DNA of 42,066 nucleotides from the UHGV virus genome UHGV-0115695; one strand, 5' to 3'. The notes under the pieces are model-generated. The model made no database searches, was not told where the DNA came from, and saw only the letters and a program-made list of their open reading frames with translations. The position numbers and the translations under genes were made by a program. The DNA comes from a virus. Numbering within the stretch: position 1 is the stretch's first letter; the number at the start of each line of letters is the position of its first letter. This document shows, in pieces, positions 2,591 through 28,735 of the stretch.

Positions 2591-3438
2591 TACTGCTCCG
2601 CGATTATCTTGATGGTTGTGGCAGTAAACGCCGCACCATTTGACTGAATGGTTAACGTACTGCCATTTGTGGCAAGAAAGCCGTCTTTATCCACGCTGAA
2701 GAACGTAGCTAACAGGATGTTATCGGTTGTTGTCGCCGCATTACGACTGCTGACCAGTGTGTCAGGAACAGAGCCGGAAAAGGTTAGCTGCATTGACCTG
2801 TTTGCGGTTCCGCTGGGCCACGTCCCGACAATCGACAGCTTGAAGAACAGGGTTTTGTTCTCGTTGAACACAACCATCTTGTTGTTAACGGTGTCGAAGA
2901 ATGGTGCCAACGAGCCGGATGACGGCGTGAGCGTTTTCAGCAGGCTAACAAGGTTGGTCGGCGCTGTCGGGATGGTTACAGATACGCCAGAGTAAACAAC
3001 CTCTGACTTCTTGCGTGTGGTTGCATACTCCAGAGCATCAATGCGCGATTCATGGTCTGAAACCTGCGATTCCAGCGACTGAACTCTGGTATCAAGCGAC
3101 GCAATATCGCTTTCATTCTGAGCGATTCGCGTTTCATGTTCCTGAAGAGTTGATTCTGCCTGGCTGATTCGCTCCTCATGATTAACAAGTGTTGCTTCCG
3201 CAGCAGAAATTCGCTGCTCATGGTCAGCGAGAATCACATCCTGCTCATCGTTCCTGACCTGTGCATCATAAGCGCCCTGTCCTGCCTCGTTGGCCTTGTT
3301 AGCCACGTTACCAACATCAGTGCCCTGTGCGATAACGTAAAGCAGATACGACTGCGAGAAGATATTGCGTGGAAGGACTGATGTGTCGAGTCGTGTAGCC
3401 TGAATGATTACCGGCTCATTGAGATTCGAATCAGCCAT
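2590..3438 (-). CDS. 26: Tail needle protein (P22 gp26 family) with a different, longer C-terminal domain
   Basis: N-terminal ~60 aa ([43 protein letters not shown]...) closely matches recalled P22 gp26 N-terminus, followed by heptad coiled coil; C-terminal ~130 aa unrelated to P22; 282 aa versus 233 aa in P22. Confidence 0.85.
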
Positions 3439-4856
3439 TACTCAATCCTTATCTGGCAGCCTGAGAGAGTGACAGGTGACTTAGTGATAACGCGCAATTT
3501 GAAGCCGACATTTTTCCTGATGCGCCCGACTCGCTTCCACAAAACGCGTTTGTCGTAAACGAACGGTTCATTCTGCTCAATCATCTGCTCACGACCGTAA
3601 TTTATGCCGTCAGTGGTTGCAGAGAGGAACAGGCGGTCAGCGTACTGCGCAACGCCAGTTGAAGATTCAACCTCAAGGTCGAACACTCTTGCGTTATCCG
3701 CTTTGAACAACGGAGTAAACAACAGGTGTTCCTGTTGCTTGTCGTACTGGCTGCTGATATCGAACTGCAATTTGCCGATAACCGATTCCAGCTTATCGCC
3801 GCACGTTATCTGATTGCCTTCGTAAATGAAGTCGATAGCGCGGTACACATCGTCATACAGGCCTGTTTTCAACACACACCATTGCGGACCATTGGCGCTT
3901 GAAGATGCGTCGTATACGAGGACGTGGCGCGGAAGATGGATAATCAGCAACTCATGCGCATCAAACCGCAACGATTCCATCACGCCATCAGCCAGTTCAT
4001 CAGCAGTGTAGGAGCGGAGGATTTTCTCAATGCTCGCGCTGGCGATTGGTGATACCTGACCGGAGCCGATGATGTACACAGACGGCGCACCTGTTGCCGG
4101 ATTGCTGATGAACGCATACGAATCAGCAAACGGCGTTTTGCAGTAGGTTCCGGCAATCCCTTTCTGCACCATCAGTGATGGCTGTGCGACATACAAAGCG
4201 GCACCAACAGTGGTTGCACCAGTCAGGGAGAAATATTCAATCGTCGATGAACCAAAACAGACGATGAAATCTCGCCATGTTCCGATGCCGATGATGCCGT
4301 CAGGCTGAGACTCGGCACGATATTGTGCGCTGTAACGGTCAGGATGCGATTCGTCTTCAGGGTCAGTGATAAACCATGAATCAGTGCCGTCTTTTGACCA
4401 CGCATAACGCCCACGTAAACGCGTAATGTCGCGAACCGAACCTAACTCATACTGAGTGAATCCGCTGTCTGTAGGCCAGTTTGAGACGGTTTTAACCGTG
4501 CCATCATAGCGATACTCGACCAGTTGACCATTAACGCCTACCGCCTGTGATGTTCGACCATGCGCCATTGATACGCGACCACTTCCGGCAACATCACCAA
4601 CCTCGCTTTCGCCCTTATACAGCTTGCCACCACACACGCGATAAACAGCATTCTGCGCCATGTTGTACTCGACGCCTCGCGATACGCCGTTCACATCAGA
4701 ACGTTTGGCAATGCCCGGGAATGAGCGAAGATATCCGCTGCTGTTGAGGATTTCTTTGGGTGTAGCCAACATATTCACTGGTAGATAGTCGATATAGTCA
4801 GCGTTTCTAAAGTCTTTGCCGACACCTTTCATAAGCGGAAGTTGCTGAATCGGCAT
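3438..4856 (-). CDS. 10: Head completion / tail-hub protein, P22 gp10 homologue
   Basis: 472 aa, the same length as P22 gp10 as I recall it; position between gp4 and the needle gene. Confidence 0.85.
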
Positions 4857-7536: not shown

Positions 7537-8448
7537 TTATCGAATTCCTTTATTCAGTTGCGCCTTGAGCTTGCGGTATGTCTCTACATCCCCTTTGTTT
7601 GCTGCCGCTTCCATCTGTTTTTCAATCGCAGAGATATTTGCAGCAACAGCGTGTCCCTGAATGGGTTCATCAGGTAACGGGGCTTCTGAAACAGGCTTTG
7701 CTCGAGGCTTGAGAGTTAAACGTTCTGACAGTCGAGTGAGTTCAATCAGTGCGGATTGCCCGTCCATCGCCAGCAACTGGCGTGTTTTCTCAGGATTAGC
7801 ACCAAGGTGATACATGAGAGCGGCGGATTTCTCCGGGAAGAGGCGCATGATGTCGGCACCGACTGCTGGCGGCACCAGTTGCATGAATGCATCCTCTTTC
7901 TCCTGATAGTCAGGGATATTGAGCTTTTCCGCTGCGTCGTAGTGCTTACGGGCTGCCTCGACGTATTGCGCTGATTGCTGGGTGAACTCCTGAGTTTTGC
8001 GACCCTGCTCGGCGACAGCCTGGCTTCGTGCGTCCATAGCCTTGATCTGCCATTCACTGTTTGCCTGCTGGAAGGCCGCCAGTGCGCGGCTCTGGTCATA
8101 GTCGTACTTAGCCAGTGCGTCTTCGGAAAGATAATCGTTAGGGTCTGGTTGTTTTGGTAACTCAGGGTTCACCCGCAGGTGCTCCGGCAACTCTCCACGC
8201 TTAACCGCTTCCATCTGCTGCTCAAGCTCACGCTGGCGTTTGCGTTCGATGCGGCGACGAGCAAATTCAGCATTAGTTGCCGGGTCTTGTTTTGGTTTCT
8301 CATCGTCTTTCAGGACAATCTCGAAGCCTTCTTCCTGACCTGCGTTGTCGTTGGCATTATCGACAACTAAGCCATCAGCAGATGCCGCTGCATGATTGCC
8401 GGGCAGGGTTAATTCTTCAGAAGCCTGAATGTCGGTGGTTTGGTCCAT
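7537..8448 (-). CDS. 8: Scaffolding protein, P22 gp8 homologue
   Basis: 303 aa, the same length as P22 gp8 as I recall it, with similarity to it throughout. Confidence 0.95.
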
Positions 8449-8461
8449 GATTAACTCTCTC

Positions 8462-10627
8462 TTATTGAGGTGTCTCGGCTACTCCGCCGGAGGGGATTTG
8501 AACTTGACGCATAAGATTCGCGAAATCCATGCGTTGTGAATGAGTCTGGTCTGCATCTTTAAGAAGCAGCTCAGCGTTAGCGCGAGCGTCTTTGCTGCGC
8601 TGTTGCTGGAATTGACCTACGAGCTTGAGGTACTCACGCAGTTCTGCCTGCTTGTCGAGGTCCATATTGTTGAAGATTTCTGCAATCTTCGCGGCGTTGA
8701 GTTGGTTTTGGGCTTCAACCTTGGCAGCTTCAACCTGAATCTGCGCCTGTTGGTTCTCTGCCTTGAGCAATTCAGCCTGACCTTGCAGAAGGATACCCTG
8801 CGCCTGAATTTGCTCTGCTGATGGCTGCTGCGTCTGTTGTTGTGCCTGCTGCACCATCTCCATCTCTTCAGGTGTTTCTGGTTTCTTCAGCCCCATCATC
8901 ACCAGTTGCTTGTTCGCGTACTCTCGCATCATCTCGACGCCTTTACCGTCAAGCAGCGTGAAGTATTGCAGCATCAGCATCTGGAACTCTGGAGTACCTT
9001 GCGGAACCTTGGTAAGTAACTCCTGAATCTCTGCGCGGTTCTGTTCCTTCATACTCTGGAAGGATGGTCCAACGTCTGTATAGCACTCATAGCGACCGCG
9101 AATGTCGTTGAGTGTGACCACATTGCCGGACTGGTAATCTACAACTTGCGCGTAGAGTTGAACGTCTTTCTCGCTTCCGTCTTCAAGAGTCAGCGTTACA
9201 TGGCGAGGAACGTCATAAATATCGTTGACCATTGAGGCATAAATCTCGCCATCACGTCGCATTGCGGTAGCCAGGTTATCCTGAAACACGTATGTCTCAA
9301 GGTCTGCCCGCATGTTCAGTTGATTGACGGTATCGAAAGCGACCTGACCATTTGCCGCCTTCGCATCCACGCCAAGACTAGCCACCTCTTTCACTGCGTT
9401 GGTGGCAGCCTCAAGCATGTAAGCGTTGGCTTGCGGCACTTCAGGGTTTTCCATGTAGGAGATTGGACCAATCGGCAGGTCGTTGCCGTTTTCATCGGTC
9501 TTGTTCTGCAAATAGTACGGATAGTCATCATTTCCACCGTACATGTATTCGTAGCCTTCGATTTGCTCAGGGAAGAAGGTCGGTTTCTTCTTCGGTGAAC
9601 GAGCAACAATATCGGCGTTGAACGACATGATCATGTTACGAAGGCGTTGACCGTCTTTCGTCAGCCTTACCACTCCTTCGTAGCACTCCTTGTCACCAGC
9701 GAATGACCATTCGCCATACACTGGAACGATTGGAATATGCTCTCCGGCTATCTTCTCGCGGTCTTTCAGTATCTGCGTGCAGGTGATGATCGACTTATAC
9801 ACGCGCCGACGCTTCACCTTGCGCTCTGCTACCTTAATGAATCCACGATTAGCCAGGTCGTCGATGACGTCTTTGATATCCTGCTGGTAATAGCTGACCG
9901 GCTCACCTGTCAGCGGGTCGCGGTAGATGAAGACTTTCTCCTTCTTCTCTTCTACCTCGTAATACTCAGCGACGTAGACGACATCATTCGATACCCACGG
10001 AAACAGCCATGTATCGTTCGGATTCTGGAAAGATGGCAAGGTGTCCGGATCAATACCGTAATCCTCTGCGAACTCTTTCCAGCCATTGCGCGACAAGGCG
10101 TTAATCACCGTGCAGTGCTTAGCGTCGCTCTTATCCATCTGCTTGCTGTTGGCGTCCCATATGACGTGTGAGCAGGCTTCATGGATTGGCAGGCGTCGGA
10201 TTACCTGATTGTTGCTTGTTGGGTCGTTGTCTTCGTACTGGGTGACCAGACGCCATGCACCAACGCCGGACTCTATCTGCTCACGAACGCCAACGTTAAC
10301 GGCAATTTTTGCCGTGTTATGGCGCATATCAGTACGATACATTCCCATCAACACATCGGCAGCATCAGGATTAGCGCCGTCTTTGGGTCTGAATAGAACG
10401 TCGATAGGGTTCCGACGCATCTCTGCGACCAGTTTCCTGACCACCGGGCGAACAACATCGAATTGTCCGCGATATTGCAGGGTGGTGTAGTTTGATAGCC
10501 AGTCATCCCATTGCGACACTCGGCTAAAATACAGGTCATTTGTCGCCTCGGTTCTGGCTTCATCGCTCGCCATCCAGTCTGCGTCAAACTTACACAGAAT
10601 GGAATTGAGTCTGTTTTCGTCGGCCAT
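8462..10627 (-). CDS. 1: Portal protein, P22 gp1 homologue
   Basis: 721 aa; P22 portal-like sequence with long C-terminal Gln/Ala-rich coiled-coil barrel region. Confidence 0.95.
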
Positions 10628-23018: not shown

Positions 23019-23669
23019 ATGAAAACTCAATTGATGGGAGAGCGCATTCGCGCTCGGAGAAAAGAACTCAAGATCAGGCAGGCCGCACTTGGAAAGATGG
23101 TCGGCGTGTCTAATGTTGCCATATCTCAGTGGGAACGCTCTGAGACAGAGCCAAATGGAGAGAATCTTCTCGCCCTGGCTAATGCGTTGAAGTGTTCCCC
23201 TGACTATCTGATGAAAGGAGAGGAAAGTCTTTCAAACATTGCCTATCACAGTAGGCATGATCCAAGAGGGTCATACCCTCTGATTAGCTGGGTGAGCGCA
23301 GGATGCTGGATGGAAGCTGTAGAACCATATCATAAGCGTGCAATAGATAACTGGTACGATACAACCGTAGACTGTTCAGAAGATTCGTTTTGGTTGGACG
23401 TGAAGGGAGACTCAATGACGGCTCCGGCCGGTCTCAGTATCCCTGAAGGAATGATAATACTCGTCGATCCTGAAGTAGAGCCGCGTAACGGGAAACTGGT
23501 AGTTGCAAAGCTCGAAGGAGAAAACGAGGCAACTTTCAAGAAGTTAGTTATTGATGCAGGCAGGAAGTTTCTAAAACCACTTAACCCACAATATCCGATG
23601 ATCGAGATCAACGGAAACTGCAAAATCATCGGCGTAGTTGTCGATGCAAAACTAGCAAACCTTCCATAA
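23019..23669 (+). CDS. c2: Prophage repressor C2 (P22 type, LexA-like cleavable)
   Basis: 216 aa; matches recalled P22 C2 including HTH QAALGKMVGVSNVAISQWERS and C-terminal peptidase fold region. Confidence 0.95.
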   Translation: MKTQLMGERIRARRKELKIRQAALGKMVGVSNVAISQWERSETEPNGENLLALANALKCSPDYLMKGEESLSNIAYHSRHDPRGSYPLISWVSAGCWMEAVEPYHKRAIDNWYDTTVDCSEDSFWLDVKGDSMTAPAGLSIPEGMIILVDPEVEPRNGKLVVAKLEGENEATFKKLVIDAGRKFLKPLNPQYPMIEINGNCKIIGVVVDAKLANLP

Positions 23670-23692
23670 GGGGGCATTCGCCCCTTTTTTTA
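23669..23692 (+). terminator. Rho-independent terminator after c2
   Basis: GGGGC-ATTC-GCCCC followed by TTTTTTT directly after the c2 stop. Confidence 0.75.
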
Positions 23693-23699
23693 TTTCCTT

Positions 23700-23790
23700 T
23701 AAAAATCAAAGCCAAACTTAAGTTACGAAAGAAAATTTAAGTTTTCTTCAAAAATACTCTTGACCATTAATTAAAGAGATCTTAAATTTA
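23700..23790 (+). promoter_or_regulatory. OL operators and PL promoter
   Basis: TTGACC (23760-23765) and TAAATT (23783-23788) with 17-bp spacing; operator ATTAAAGAGATCTTAAAT (23769-23786) overlapping; further half-site-like repeats upstream. Confidence 0.7.
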
Positions 23791-23833
23791 AGCCATCAGC
23801 AGGACGCGGAAGCCAAACGGAACAGATTGGCAG

Positions 23834-23873
23834 GCTCTTTAACATTGATGGGATTGTCCCGCCGAAATGCGGG
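23834..23873 (+). promoter_or_regulatory. nutL: boxA (GCTCTTTAACA) and boxB hairpin
   Basis: Same boxA and boxB (CCCGCCGAAATGCGGG) as nutR, downstream of PL and upstream of the N-like gene. Confidence 0.75.
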
Positions 23874-24141
23874 AACCAAAGAGTAGTTGGCTTTGGGGTG
23901 TGGTGAAGCCAGCTAGTCACTGGCAAGTGCTTACCTACTGTTGAGCGGTGAAGCGCTCCCAACGCTAGCAATAGCGTGGACGAGATGGGGAGCCGCGGGC
24001 GATAAGGCCGCCATAACGCGCACGTTGTCGCATGGAAAAATCGCTGGGGTGCCGGTTATACCCCTCCGAATGAGACTCAACAAGCTGGAGCTAGACTACC
24101 AGCCACCACACCACCAAAGCTAATCATCTGAGGAACAGAAA

Positions 24142-24261
24142 ATGTTAGACATCATGACCAACCCAATTCTCGGTGGTTTAGTTACCACATTCGCCATCTG
24201 CTTCGGTTTCACTATCTGGTCTGAAGTAGATGACTGGATGTGGGAACGCAAAAACAAATAA
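24142..24261 (+). CDS. Small hydrophobic peptide (39 aa) between nutL and N
   Basis: ATG preceded by GAGGAA; MLDIMTNPILGGLVTTFAICFGFTIWSEVDDWMWERKNK has one predicted TM helix; below the track length cut-off. Confidence 0.4.
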   Translation: MLDIMTNPILGGLVTTFAICFGFTIWSEVDDWMWERKNK

Positions 24262-24301
24262 TCATCGACACACAAGGATGTGCACCTACCCGGAGGTCAA
24301 C

Positions 24302-24601
24302 ATGACAGTAGTCATTACATATCTGGCTGACGATAACGCCAGAAATCGCCGCAGAGCACGCAGACAGGCTCAACGTGAACAGGCAATGCAAGAGCAGCGA
24401 CTGGCGCGAAAAATTGAGCTAAAGCTCTCTGGTTGCGTCAGAGCAGATAAAGCAGCATCACTCGGAAGCCTTCGCTGCAAGAAGGCAGAAGAAGTCGAGC
24501 GTAAACAGAACCGTATTTACTACCGCAAGCCACGCAGTGAAATGGGTGTGACTTGTGTTGGTCGCCAGAAAATGAAATTAGGCAGCAAACCACTTATTTG
24601 A
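24302..24601 (+). CDS. N-like transcription antiterminator (arginine-rich motif)
   Basis: 99 aa from MTVVITYLADDNARNRRRARRQAQREQ; arginine-rich motif at N-terminus; first gene of the PL operon downstream of nutL. Confidence 0.65.
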   Translation: MTVVITYLADDNARNRRRARRQAQREQAMQEQRLARKIELKLSGCVRADKAASLGSLRCKKAEEVERKQNRIYYRKPRSEMGVTCVGRQKMKLGSKPLI

Positions 24602-24609
24602 GGTGATAT

Positions 24610-24933
24610 ATGGAAGCATTAGTAGTAGAGCGAAGCGAGGATGGCTACTGGACGCACCCAGAATACGCCAACCTGTTTGGGGATAGAGAGGTAATTTCAG
24701 CTGATGAGTTCAGATCTTTCTGCAAGCAGCATGGCATTGAATCATCAATTGTTGAAATGGAAAACGACAACAATCAAACGGTAATTGACTCGTATTTTGA
24801 AGATGGGAATCCAAACATCAGTGGATGGGAGCCAAGCATGCCAGATGGAGAAGGATGGTTTGTTGGTTCGATTCACGATACAGAAGACGGTCCGATCTGC
24901 GTTTGGTTCAGGAATGTAGATAAGGCCGCATAG
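24610..24933 (+). CDS. Strongly acidic hypothetical protein (first gene after N)
   Basis: 107 aa; roughly 23 Asp/Glu against about 6 Lys/Arg by my count; terminator overlaps its stop. Confidence 0.6.
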   Translation: MEALVVERSEDGYWTHPEYANLFGDREVISADEFRSFCKQHGIESSIVEMENDNNQTVIDSYFEDGNPNISGWEPSMPDGEGWFVGSIHDTEDGPICVWFRNVDKAA

Positions 24934-24948
24934 TCGGCCTTTATTTTT
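24923..24948 (+). terminator. Rho-independent terminator (tL1-like)
   Basis: AGGCCG-CATAGT-CGGCCT followed by TTATTTTT. Confidence 0.7.
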
Positions 24949-24970
24949 GGCATAAACAACAGAGGTGAAT

Positions 24971-25105
24971 ATGAACGCAGTTGAATTTACAAAATGGATG
25001 GCAGAGCAAGATATCACAGGATCCGACGAAAAGGCTGTGTACTACATGGCTCTGCTATGGATTCACAAAGCAAAAGAGGCTGCAAATGCTCTTGGAGGTG
25101 AGTGA
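24971..25105 (+). CDS. Small hypothetical protein (44 aa)
   Basis: AGAGGTG RBS then ATG; stop overlaps next start; no family recognised. Confidence 0.35.
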   Translation: MNAVEFTKWMAEQDITGSDEKAVYYMALLWIHKAKEAANALGGE

Positions 25106-25305
25106 TGTGCGAGTTTTATGAAGCAGATATCAAACGCCCAGAAATGGCAAGTGATGCAACATTACGTGATTACTTCGCGGCAAAGGCTATGCAAGCAATG
25201 ATTAGCAATCCATCGATTATCGATAATGATTCTGATGGAGCTGTTAATTATGCAGCAAGCGCTGCATATAAGTTTGCAGACGCAATGCTCAAAGCTCGCG
25301 AATAA
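25105..25305 (+). CDS. Small hypothetical protein (66 aa)
   Basis: Translationally coupled to the preceding small ORF; no family recognised. Confidence 0.4.
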   Translation: MCEFYEADIKRPEMASDATLRDYFAAKAMQAMISNPSIIDNDSDGAVNYAASAAYKFADAMLKARE

Positions 25306-25400
25306 GCACTGTGTATTCATTCCAACGAGTGAATACACGGAGCAATGTCGCTCGTAACTAAACAGGAGCCGACTTGTTCTGATTATTGGAAATCTTCTTT

Positions 25401-25428
25401 GCCCTCCAGTGTGAGGGCAATTTTTTTG
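25401..25428 (+). terminator. Rho-independent terminator
   Basis: GCCCTC-CAGTGT-GAGGGC followed by AATTTTTTT; lies inside the N-terminal extension of the 324-aa track ORF, which argues for the later start. Confidence 0.65.
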
Positions 25429-25439
25429 ACGGAGGATAT

Positions 25440-26360
25440 ATGAGTGAAGTAACAGATTTAGTTGTTATTGAAAAAGCAAATGCAATGACTGTATTTCAGT
25501 CTGCCGACCAGATTGAAGAAATCCTTCAAAAGGTTGAACGTGAAGTTATGTCCTTTGTGCCTGATATCACAACGGCAAAGGGCAGAAAGGAGATCGCTTC
25601 TCTGGCGTATAAAGTTGCGCAGACGAAAACATATCTCGATGGTCTTGGCAAAGACCTTGTTGCTGAACTGAAGGAAATTCCAAAGCTAATTGATGCTAAC
25701 CGCAAGACAGTGCGCGATCGCCTTGATGAACTGAAAGCCAAGGCGCGCCAGCCTCTTACTGATTATGAGGAAGAACAGGCGCGGATTAAAGCCGAAGAAG
25801 AAGCTAAGGCAGCAGCTGAAGCTCTCGCAAAGCAAATTGAGTCTGACCATGAAATAGCGATTTTGATGGATCGCGAATTTGACCGCCAAAGAGAAGAGGC
25901 AAGACTCAAAGCTGAGCAGGAAAAGCGAGAGCATGAAGAACGCTTAAAAAGAGAAGCTGAAGAGAAAGCCAGAGCTGAAGCCGAAGCAAAGGCAAAAGCC
26001 GAAATTGAAGCAGCAGCAAGGCGAGAAGCAGAAGCTAAGGCCGCAGCGGAACGTGCAGAGCGTGAACGCATTGAAGCCGAGCAACGAGCACAGCGCGAAG
26101 CAAAAGAGGCAGCAGAACGAGCTGAAAGAGAAAAGCATGCGGCAATTGAAGCAGAACGCCGTAAAGCACAGGAGGAGGCAGAACGAATCCGGCGCGAGGC
26201 TGAAGCAAAAGAGCAAGCCAGAATAGCAGAAGAAAAAAGAATCAAGGACGAAGAAGAGCGTAGAGCAAAGGATAAAGCTCACCGGAAAGAAGTAAATAAC
26301 AAAATACTTGCTGACCTTATCAAGGTTGGCGCATCGAAGATGTTGCTAAAAATATCATAA
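25440..26360 (+). CDS. Hypothetical protein with a structured N-terminal region and a long E/A/K/R-rich coiled-coil
   Basis: 306 aa from MSEVTDLVVIEKANAM... (GGAGG RBS 5 nt upstream); residues ~110-290 are low-complexity charged heptads; upstream of the recombination module. Confidence 0.6.
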   Translation: MSEVTDLVVIEKANAMTVFQSADQIEEILQKVEREVMSFVPDITTAKGRKEIASLAYKVAQTKTYLDGLGKDLVAELKEIPKLIDANRKTVRDRLDELKAKARQPLTDYEEEQARIKAEEEAKAAAEALAKQIESDHEIAILMDREFDRQREEARLKAEQEKREHEERLKREAEEKARAEAEAKAKAEIEAAARREAEAKAAAERAERERIEAEQRAQREAKEAAERAEREKHAAIEAERRKAQEEAERIRREAEAKEQARIAEEKRIKDEEERRAKDKAHRKEVNNKILADLIKVGASKMLLKIS

Positions 26361-26431
26361 CAGCCATCGTAAAAGGCGAAGTATTCGCAACAAAAATAAC
26401 CTACTAATAAAACCAACATAAGGAACCACCC

Positions 26432-26563
26432 ATGATTTACGCAATCGCGGGAGGCGCTCGCATGGGTGCCTTCCAATTAAATGAATCTTTACTTGAACGA
26501 ATCACCCGTAAATTACGTGACGGATGGAAAAGATTTGAGGTCTTATTATGCGCAATGAAATAG
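26432..26563 (+). CDS. Small hypothetical protein (43 aa)
   Basis: AGGAACC RBS then ATG; overlaps next small ORF. Confidence 0.3.
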   Translation: MIYAIAGGARMGAFQLNESLLERITRKLRDGWKRFEVLLCAMK

Positions 26564-26700
26564 CCATCAATCACCAGATGCTTCGTGCTGCACAGAACAA
26601 AGCAGTAATAGCCAGATTTATTGGTGATTCAAAAATGTGGCTTGAAGCAAATAAAGCGATGAAATCAGCTATCAATCTTCCGTGGTATCGCAGGAAATGA
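26548..26700 (+). CDS. Small hypothetical protein (50 aa)
   Basis: Overlapping coupled small ORF; no family recognised. Confidence 0.3.
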   Translation: MRNEIAINHQMLRAAQNKAVIARFIGDSKMWLEANKAMKSAINLPWYRRK

Positions 26701-26867
26701 GTTTTACAGATAACTGGTCAGACGAAGAATTCATTCGTCAGATGAAAGAATTAATCGGTAACGAAGGAGATATTCATGTCACTTGCAACCACAGTGAAGG
26801 AGAGCAAGTTACAGAGACGCATGTACACGCAGCAGGCGTTAATGTATCGCCAGAAGGGAGATCGTGA
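26697..26867 (+). CDS. Small hypothetical protein (56 aa)
   Basis: ATGA start/stop overlap with the preceding ORF; acidic. Confidence 0.35.
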   Translation: MSFTDNWSDEEFIRQMKELIGNEGDIHVTCNHSEGEQVTETHVHAAGVNVSPEGRS

Positions 26868-26954
26868 AGGTGTTCGCGTATTTTTAAATGCGGCAAAGAC
26901 TGAAGTATTAAATCAGCGTTATTTCCTTGGGCCATGTCCATTCTGAGGTGAATT

Positions 26955-28198: not shown

Positions 28199-28735
28199 AT
28201 GGTTGACCTTGAAACAATGGGCAACGGGCCATACGCGCCAGTTATTTCTATTGGGGCGGTATTCTTTGACCCGAATATCGGAGAAACAGGAGAAGAGTTC
28301 TCGGTAAATATCTCACTTGAGTCATCAATGCGATATCGAGCGCGTCCTGACGCTTCAACGATTTTATGGTGGATGGAACAGAGTGAAGAAGCCAGAAAAT
28401 CGCTAACCAGCAACACTCAGGAGCTTTCAACGGCTCTTTCATGGTTATCTGAATTCATCATAAAGAACGCTAACCACAAATTCGTTCAGGTTTGGGGGAA
28501 TGGAGCATCATTTGACTGCGTTATTCTCCGAAACAGTTATTCGCTGACAGGGCAGCCAGTTCCATGGCAGTGGTGGAATGACCGCGACGTAAGAACAATC
28601 GTCGAGCTTGGAAAGGTAATAGGATTCGACCCTAAGCGAGATATGCCATTCAAAGGAACTCGCCACAACGCTCTTGATGATGCCATTCACCAAGCCAAAT
28701 ACGTTTCAGCGATCTGGAAAAAGTTAGCTAAATAA
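28199..28735 (+). CDS. DEDDh-family 3'-5' exonuclease
   Basis: Exo motifs DLETMG, FDCVIL and HNALDDA in the right order and spacing; 178 aa. Confidence 0.7.
   Translation: MVDLETMGNGPYAPVISIGAVFFDPNIGETGEEFSVNISLESSMRYRARPDASTILWWMEQSEEARKSLTSNTQELSTALSWLSEFIIKNANHKFVQVWGNGASFDCVILRNSYSLTGQPVPWQWWNDRDVRTIVELGKVIGFDPKRDMPFKGTRHNALDDAIHQAKYVSAIWKKLAK

Follow-up and report, generated by a model that had tools for sequence, protein, structure and literature searches.

A very acidic early gene directly downstream of N in a lambda-like Escherichia coli prophage is a near-identical allele of orf184 of phage mEp213

The open reading frame (ORF) that directly follows the antiterminator gene N in virus genome UHGV-0115695 (42,066 nucleotides, the whole stretch of DNA analysed and hereafter the window) is genuine: it is an early gene in a lambda-like prophage of E. 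coli and encodes a very acidic protein. As an entity it is already known, since its product is identical at 104 of 107 residues to orf184 (UDP0184, AFM76385.1) of Enterobacteria phage mEp213, the differences being V28A, S36Y, and S61A, all at variable positions. Expression of orf184 alone is lethal in ECOR59; transposon suppressors of this lethality map to beta and gop; cloned gop-beta-cII reproduced the death phenotype in a laboratory strain; and the P4-satellite gop-beta-cII is an abortive system set off by orf184 (Silas et al., bioRxiv 10.1101/2023.04.06.535777). The demonstration concerns mEp213 orf184 alone, and because the three substitutions of the window allele fall at variable positions, this allele is likely to trigger gop-beta-cII death as well. 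We favor, with a probability of roughly 40%, the reading that this acidic protein works without enzymatic activity by binding a basic protein of the host or of a rival element, that it can stand in functionally for ral, and that Gop-beta-cII senses it.

An exact recount finds 23 Asp and Glu against 6 Lys and Arg (and 3 His) in the 107 residues, in agreement with the approximate figures of a preliminary description made from the sequence alone; the isoelectric point, which that description had left to be calculated, is 4.09, with a computed net charge of about -17 at pH 7, and among the 70 window ORFs of at least 80 residues no product is more acidic. The protein is a full-length match (residues 1-106, E = 4.4e-44) to phrog_1372, a family annotated as 'unknown function', and a profile search of 1.8 billion sequences, using an orf184-family profile built from 31 relatives, matched 1009 cluster representatives (50% identity) at E values up to 1e-3. 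Acidity is a trait of the PHROG 1372/orf184 family as a whole: 180 family domains average 21.4 Asp and Glu against 7.1 Lys and Arg, with a mean net charge of -14, and the pI is below 5 in 97% of them. The PHROG match, the 1009 representatives, and the family-wide acidity together place the ORF beyond chance. Conservation in the family centers on a tight core of Trp, Gly, and Pro and does not follow a loose pattern of charge: R8, G12, W14, H16, P17, W73, P75, P78, G80, G82, W83, F84, I88, and G94 are conserved in at least 90% of 181 domains, and the motifs VxRxxxGxWTHP and WxPxxPxGxGWFxGSIHDTEDGPxCxWxR are all present in the window protein.

The family is large and, so far as names go, anonymous. 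A tblastn search of phages found relatives in 80 records, the best being mEp213 (97% identical); among the matches listed, those at 33-48% identity come from Pectobacterium, Yersinia PY54, P1-like D6, Burkholderia, Pseudomonas, Vibrio, and Klebsiella phages. At least 547 IMG/VR loci carry an orf184-family gene, and the acidic ORF is present in 41 of 5426 complete E. coli genomes, where strain E62 has a 100% identical copy. A protein search returned 36 clusters, for which every name given by any source was 'hypothetical'. Nor did the window protein match anything in Pfam, NCBIfam, or PADLOC, including ocr, ArdA, Lar/Ral, and ArdB/KlcA; a Pfam scan at E values up to 1 matched no family, and a sequence-profile search of the PDB gave no match below E = 0.6.

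The layout of the region is lambdoid (Table 1). A promoter candidate lies between cI (23019-23669) and N, as expected of pL, and is the presumed start of an early operon of the leftward type. N is 97.5% identical in DNA sequence to N of CUS-3, and also gives a weak match to PF25694 (E = 9e-4, below the cut-off). The N stop codon TGA (24599-24601) overlaps the strong ribosome-binding site GAGGTG of the acidic ORF, whose ATG begins at 24610, 8 nt past the stop, so that translational coupling to N is plausible. At the other end, the terminator hairpin (24922-24941) has the stem AAGGCCG and CGGCCTT around the loop CATAGT and is followed by TATTTTTGG; it folds at -18 kcal/mol (z = -3.1 against shuffles), and the TAG stop of the acidic ORF (24931-24933) sits inside the loop. 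No other terminator-like site was found on the + strand between the promoter candidate and 24922. Lying upstream of the first pL terminator, the acidic protein would be made together with N from one immediate-early transcript, before antitermination. The preliminary description had placed the acidic gene first after N and had seen the terminator overlap its stop codon, and both observations are correct.

Table 1. Features of the post-N region of the window, and plasmid gene pairs discussed in the text
Feature	Coordinates	Strand	Remarks
pL-like sigma-70 promoter candidate	23760..23788	+	TTGACC-17-TAAATT; consensus scan only; 3' of cI terminator
Segment: N, ribosome-binding site, ATGGAAG start	24291-24616		common to CUS-3
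Antiterminator N gene	24302..24601	+	99 aa, arginine-rich N-terminus; phrog_271 'anti-termination protein N-like', E = 5e-37
5' cassette junction GGTGATATATGGAAG	24602..24616	+	ribosome-binding site, spacer, Met-Glu start; single exact match in window
Acidic 107-aa ORF	24610..24933	+	PHROG 1372/orf184 family; 97% identical to mEp213 AFM76385.1
Segment: acidic ORF body	24617-24922		CUS-3 has instead a 28-aa hyper-acidic orf, ral, and a 140-aa membrane orf
Intrinsic terminator, tL1-like	24922..24949	+	7-bp stem, 6-nt loop, T-rich tail; hairpin scan and fold
Segment: terminator and flank, 3' cassette junction	24923-24963		41 nt, 100% identical to CUS-3; encodes C-terminus ..KAA-stop
Segment: two small ORFs	24964-25305		absent from CUS-3
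Segment: downstream genes	25306-26947		common to CUS-3
DUF2726-family gene pair, L088 (pKPHS2, NC_016846.1)	8345-9300		
DUF2726-family gene pair, L089	8300-9291		
DUF2726-family gene pair, L093	4336-5291		

Several smaller features of the early region deserve mention in their own right. Between the promoter candidate and the first ORF lies an untranslated leader of about 340 nt (23800-24140) that looked GC-rich by eye and parts of which are common to CUS-3 (annotated there as 'bsq5 boundary sequence') and mEp213; an Rfam scan of 23600-25500 matched no structured RNA, and boxA/boxB elements of nutL were not recognised in the leader. Between the leader and N, a 39-residue hydrophobic ORF (24142-24261; phrog_7482, E = 8e-25) encodes a conserved small membrane peptide. 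Past the terminator, two ORFs of 44 residues (24971-25102, phrog_24660) and 66 residues (25105-25302, phrog_2201 and relatives) occupy a second cargo slot, and a second strong terminator-like hairpin (25399-25420) is found just 5' of a 306-residue Glu/Ala/Lys/Arg-rich protein (25440-26360; phrog_1376, 'TolA' in mEp213) that is conserved across these phages.

The slot downstream of N holds ral in the close relatives CUS-3, N7, Sf101, and HK544, and a tblastn search of the window with CUS-3 Ral found no ral. Homology between the window and CUS-3 stops at 24616, at the end of the 5' junction, and the same junction sequence precedes both the 28-aa acidic orf and the 140-aa orf of CUS-3; the 3' junction of the slot cargo reads AAGGC(C/T)GC...GGCCTTTATTTTTG and encodes a C-terminal KAA, the stop codon, and the terminator, with the result that CUS-3 Ral ends in NKAA, the lambda Ea10-like DUF2528 protein in IKAA, and the window protein in DKAA. 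Junction sites occur in the CUS-3 locus (L001) at 3090-3106, 3359-3388, 3423-3440, and 3856-3896. Given these shared 5' and 3' junctions, ral, the Ea10-like gene, and the acidic ORF behave as exchangeable cassettes, and the terminator is part of the slot junction rather than of the gene; in 16 IMG/VR loci the same terminator pattern follows the family gene, and in CUS-3 it follows ral. The positional argument of the preliminary description, that the first place after N is a ral-type slot, is correct for this phage group, the ral segment of CUS-3 being replaced exactly between shared junctions. The 28-aa hyper-acidic ORF of CUS-3 (L001 3100-3186, MEEEFEEFEEHPQDVMEQYQDYPYDYDY) is unannotated, lies at the shared junction after N, and overlaps the start of ral. 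In mEp213 (PV340538.1), two N genes are annotated (1027-1359 and 2512-2784), and sequence resembling the 3' end of N is found again just 5' of orf184, which suggests that a block consisting of the N end, the gene, and the terminator moved by recombination at the junctions.

Beyond this slot the neighborhoods are more varied. In 30 IMG/VR loci with a gene at least 85% identical, the next gene upstream is N 16 times and the 74-aa orf of the mEp213 type 5 times; elsewhere the family gene follows ead in a nin-like region (Rac-SA53), lies near DUF551 and 3'-5' exonuclease genes (phiSTEC1575), or adjoins ppp (D6). The named neighbors in 80 IMG/VR loci are just N, Ea10/DUF2528, a weak methyltransferase match, and a phosphatase-like gene (from the D6 annotation), and with so few names guilt by association is thin.

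AlphaFold2, run with 31 relatives, predicts the window protein with a pLDDT of 93.5 and a pTM of 0.84, in the order N-terminal extended segment, two helices, strand, helix, long loop, and C-terminal beta-hairpin (83-102). No solved structure matched this model, solved DNA mimics included, and the protein would therefore appear to adopt a new fold, confidently predicted. Contacts were measured on 92 of the 107 residues (all but 45-59) of the published AlphaFold model of orf184 (supplement of Silas et al.), so that exposure values are approximate. In that model, which is globular but flattened (roughly 42 x 30 x 20 A), the conserved charged residues have structural uses (R8 with the W73 carbonyl, R26 with E33, D90 with the Tyr62 hydroxyl, and R101, which pairs with E44 and stacks on W83), and the most exposed conserved positions are Thr91, Glu92, and Asp93 at the tip of the beta-hairpin. 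Acidic side chains, read off the coordinates of the 92 modelled residues, are found on all faces, with no sign in this partial model of a phosphate-like or DNA-like array of carboxylates.

These observations bear directly on the preliminary description, which had proposed a DNA mimic or anti-restriction factor of the Ocr or ArdA kind and had named structure prediction as a check. Its slot logic stands. The mimicry finds no support in family, fold, or charge array: no Ocr or ArdA sequence family was recognised, the confident model resembles no solved DNA mimic or catalytic family, and mimics do not typically show so strongly conserved a core of Trp, Gly, and Pro. In favor of a classical mimic that blocks type I restriction-modification and/or BREX are the net charge of -17 over 107 residues, kept family-wide, the ral slot with its predicted immediate-early expression, the occasional fusions to Lar, and the triggering of a cell-death system by the homologue, as by Ocr and ArdA; set against these are the flattened globule with acids on all sides (in the partial model), the absence of sequence or fold likeness to solved mimics, the absence of orf184 from the sensitisers recovered where Ocr, Ral, and ArdA were, and the position of the plasmid relatives outside the leading region, and we regard such a mimic as improbable. 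Both mimicry and inhibition of type I restriction-modification or BREX are unproven and somewhat disfavored; an anti-defence role of some kind is plausible.

The orf184 model was also searched for catalytic features. A metal site was rejected (the distance between H16 and H89 exceeds 12 A, C97 lies buried next to W99, and E33 is engaged with R26), as was a catalytic triad, there being no acid near His89, whose closest partner is the Tyr19 hydroxyl at 4.7 A. The Ser87 OG lies 2.6 A from His89 ND1, with Thr15 at 3.1 A, and this predicted hydrogen-bonded pair would be compatible with an enzymatic role. A small enzyme, or a sponge for a nucleotide signal or other small molecule, could make use of such polar residues, and would suit the fusions, seen once each, to a Tad2-like and a DHH/DHHA1 domain; yet Ser87 and His89 are just 84% and 78% conserved among family domains, no catalytic family was matched, neither triad acid nor metal cluster is present, and the extreme negative charge is unfavorable for nucleotide binding, so that we consider this very improbable. 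The contact pattern of the partial predicted model speaks more for a module that binds than for an enzyme.

Of the best 150 family representatives, about half are longer proteins in which the domain occupies either terminus, and one has two copies. Among the partners that Pfam recognises are Lar_restr_allev (3) and Rv2179c-like exonuclease (2), together with single fusions to Tad2-like, KTSC, DHHA1, and other domains; most partners are unannotated in Pfam and PHROGs, among them the largest cluster, which accounts for 17 of the 75 partner segments. The Lar fusions are genuine but rare. As a group the fusions hint at counter-defence and are not decisive, since all early accessory genes are neighbors. 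The commonest partner, of about 90 residues, has the motif ERxRQ..EGW..HDD...WPW..WKPS..KAGAL..AEIERLDR (in P0048, P0063, P0089, P0091, P0093, P0095, P0105, P0127, P0176, and others) and matches just PHROGs of unknown function (6628, 9434, 9763, and others). Separately, the window itself encodes a 178-residue DEDD-type exonuclease (28199-28735) that is visibly like the Rv2179c-like domains fused in P0082 and P0085, with the common motif, aligned by eye, WGNGA.FD..IL...Y......PW..WNDRD.RT.

A role outside immunity would place the protein among host-takeover or phage-physiology factors (replication, recombination, or nucleoid), with gop-beta-cII sensing an abundant early protein incidentally. 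The family's company in other phages, where it is found among replication, recombination, and nin-type genes, the fusions to an exonuclease of a kind that the window also encodes, and the lack of a reported counter-defence phenotype all lean this way; the precise replacement of ral in the slot, the diversity of the accessory region, which is typical of conflict genes, and the existence of Lar and Tad2-like fusions lean the other way, and we think such a role unlikely.

Relatives at 33-48% identity are also present in 2036 of 72,556 PLSDB plasmids, 1763 of them conjugative and 1496 from Klebsiella; this plasmid occurrence of the orf184 family is new here. Two locations were seen for it on F-type plasmids: some copies lie distally in the tra operon (traI-traX-finO...repA), and others separate traW from traU and overlap the traU start (L090 4983-5306, L091 4983-5324). 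Plasmid anti-restriction genes sit in the leading region, next to oriT, ssb, and psiB, and in none of the six plasmid contexts inspected is the family gene there. In four loci (L088, L089, L093, and L096) there is a 4-nt overlap between the family gene and the stop of a gene for a DUF2726 protein that is basic (pI above 10), membrane-anchored, and PD-(D/E)XK-like, DUF2726 belonging to the PD-(D/E)XK superfamily (PMC3424549).

One might therefore propose that the family consists of dedicated inhibitors or partners of DUF2726-type membrane-anchored PD-(D/E)XK nuclease-like proteins, the phage copies being orphan inhibitors directed against plasmid or host nucleases. Besides the 4-nt overlap and the superfamily assignment, the co-divergence of the two genes (57-87% against 54-68% identity) speaks for this; but the association is limited to one related plasmid backbone, the two genes lie apart in L092, L094, and L095, the traW-traU copies in L090 and L091 are without a DUF2726 gene, none occurs in the 80 phage loci or the window (the genome scan found 6 loci), and the plasmid copies have lost the acidic hairpin tip (DTGDG, PREEG). 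We find the proposal improbable in this form; the pairing may be a nuclease-partner pair, and we treat it as a lead only. A broader version, in which a new-fold acidic inhibitor of a basic nucleic-acid enzyme (DUF2726 being the leading candidate) serves phages and conjugative plasmids alike, with Gop-beta-cII guarding against it, also strikes us as doubtful, though less so.

The published record on orf184 is short. It was termed 'counter-defense-associated' solely through the accessory region shared with ral, and in infection screens of 45 phage-host combinations, in which Ocr, Ral, ArdA, IpII, and six novel genes gave counter-defence phenotypes, it was listed purely as a cell-death trigger and not among the genes that raise plaquing (Silas et al., bioRxiv 10.1101/2023.04.06.535777). 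Literature searches brought up no later studies of orf184 or gop-beta-cII beyond this preprint, and a domain search of Gop, beta, and cII, for a clue to the sensed activity, returned just the uninformative Beta_protein family. Gop-beta-cII also guards against lambda and P1 (Rousset et al., PMC9122126). Neither phage is among the organisms named in our phage search (40 of the 80 matches listed), a limited indication that would fit a system which senses an effect and not one particular protein.

How the preferred acidic binder might work can be outlined as follows: i) the protein would be a compact, non-enzymatic, strongly acidic alpha/beta domain; ii) it would bind a basic, probably nucleic-acid-binding, surface on a protein of the host or of a rival element, making contact through the conserved exposed hairpin tip His89-Asp-Thr-Glu-Asp-Gly94 and the surrounding negative surface; iii) it would hence inhibit a host factor or a defence, and could be swapped functionally with ral in the slot; and iv) what Gop-beta-cII senses would be either the protein or the effect of the inhibition. 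This reading draws on the identity with orf184 and its death-trigger phenotype with suppressors in gop and beta; on the ral slot with its exact junctions and the lack of a terminator between pL and 24922; on the family-wide acidity, the confident new fold, the structural use of conserved charges, the missing His/Cys metal cluster, and the exposed tip (91-93); on the fusion of the module at either end (Lar in 3 clusters, Tad2-like in 1); and on the plasmid coupling to a basic DUF2726 protein. It is weakened by the want of a counter-defence phenotype for orf184 in the 45 phage-host combinations, by the presence of the family in unrelated early or nin-like regions outside this phage group (Rac-SA53, D6, phiSTEC1575) among neighbors that say little, by the rarity of the Lar and Tad2-like fusions, and by the conserved Ser87-His89 pair.

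Function matters here beyond one locus, because the family is large, its fold has no solved relative, its negative charge is kept, and it exchanges as a cassette with ral. If the broader reading as an inhibitor of a basic nucleic-acid enzyme is right, it would define a new anti-nuclease family and the trigger logic of P4 gop-beta-cII. Identifying the target would account for a satellite-encoded defence being directed at an orf184-type protein, and might reveal an inhibitor class common to phages and conjugative plasmids.

Ocr (T7 gp0.3) and ArdA are, like the orf184-type protein, small, very acidic, first made after DNA entry, and able to trigger cell-death systems alone, but they gave an anti-restriction phenotype in the screen where the orf184 homologue gave none, and they are without sequence or structural likeness to the compact alpha/beta window protein. 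Aop1 with Ronin, Abc1 with a P4 prophage, and Ocr with PARIS offer parallels of another kind, in that a variable early phage protein alone activates an abortive system, as orf184 does, and the abortive systems concerned are borne by prophages or satellites, gop-beta-cII being the sensor of orf184; unlike orf184, Ocr has a defined target. Ral (lambda, CUS-3) and Lar (Rac) are alternative cargo of the slot, with the same 5' start junction and the same KAA-stop-terminator 3' junction; Ral is an early pL gene, as is the acidic ORF, but at 66 residues, Cys-rich, and non-acidic it has no sequence kinship to the window protein, which does not match PF14354. Finally, orf184 of mEp213 has a 74-aa orf between it and N, where the window gene follows N directly, and it shares with the window gene the post-N accessory region, the terminator junction, and a fold predicted with high confidence.
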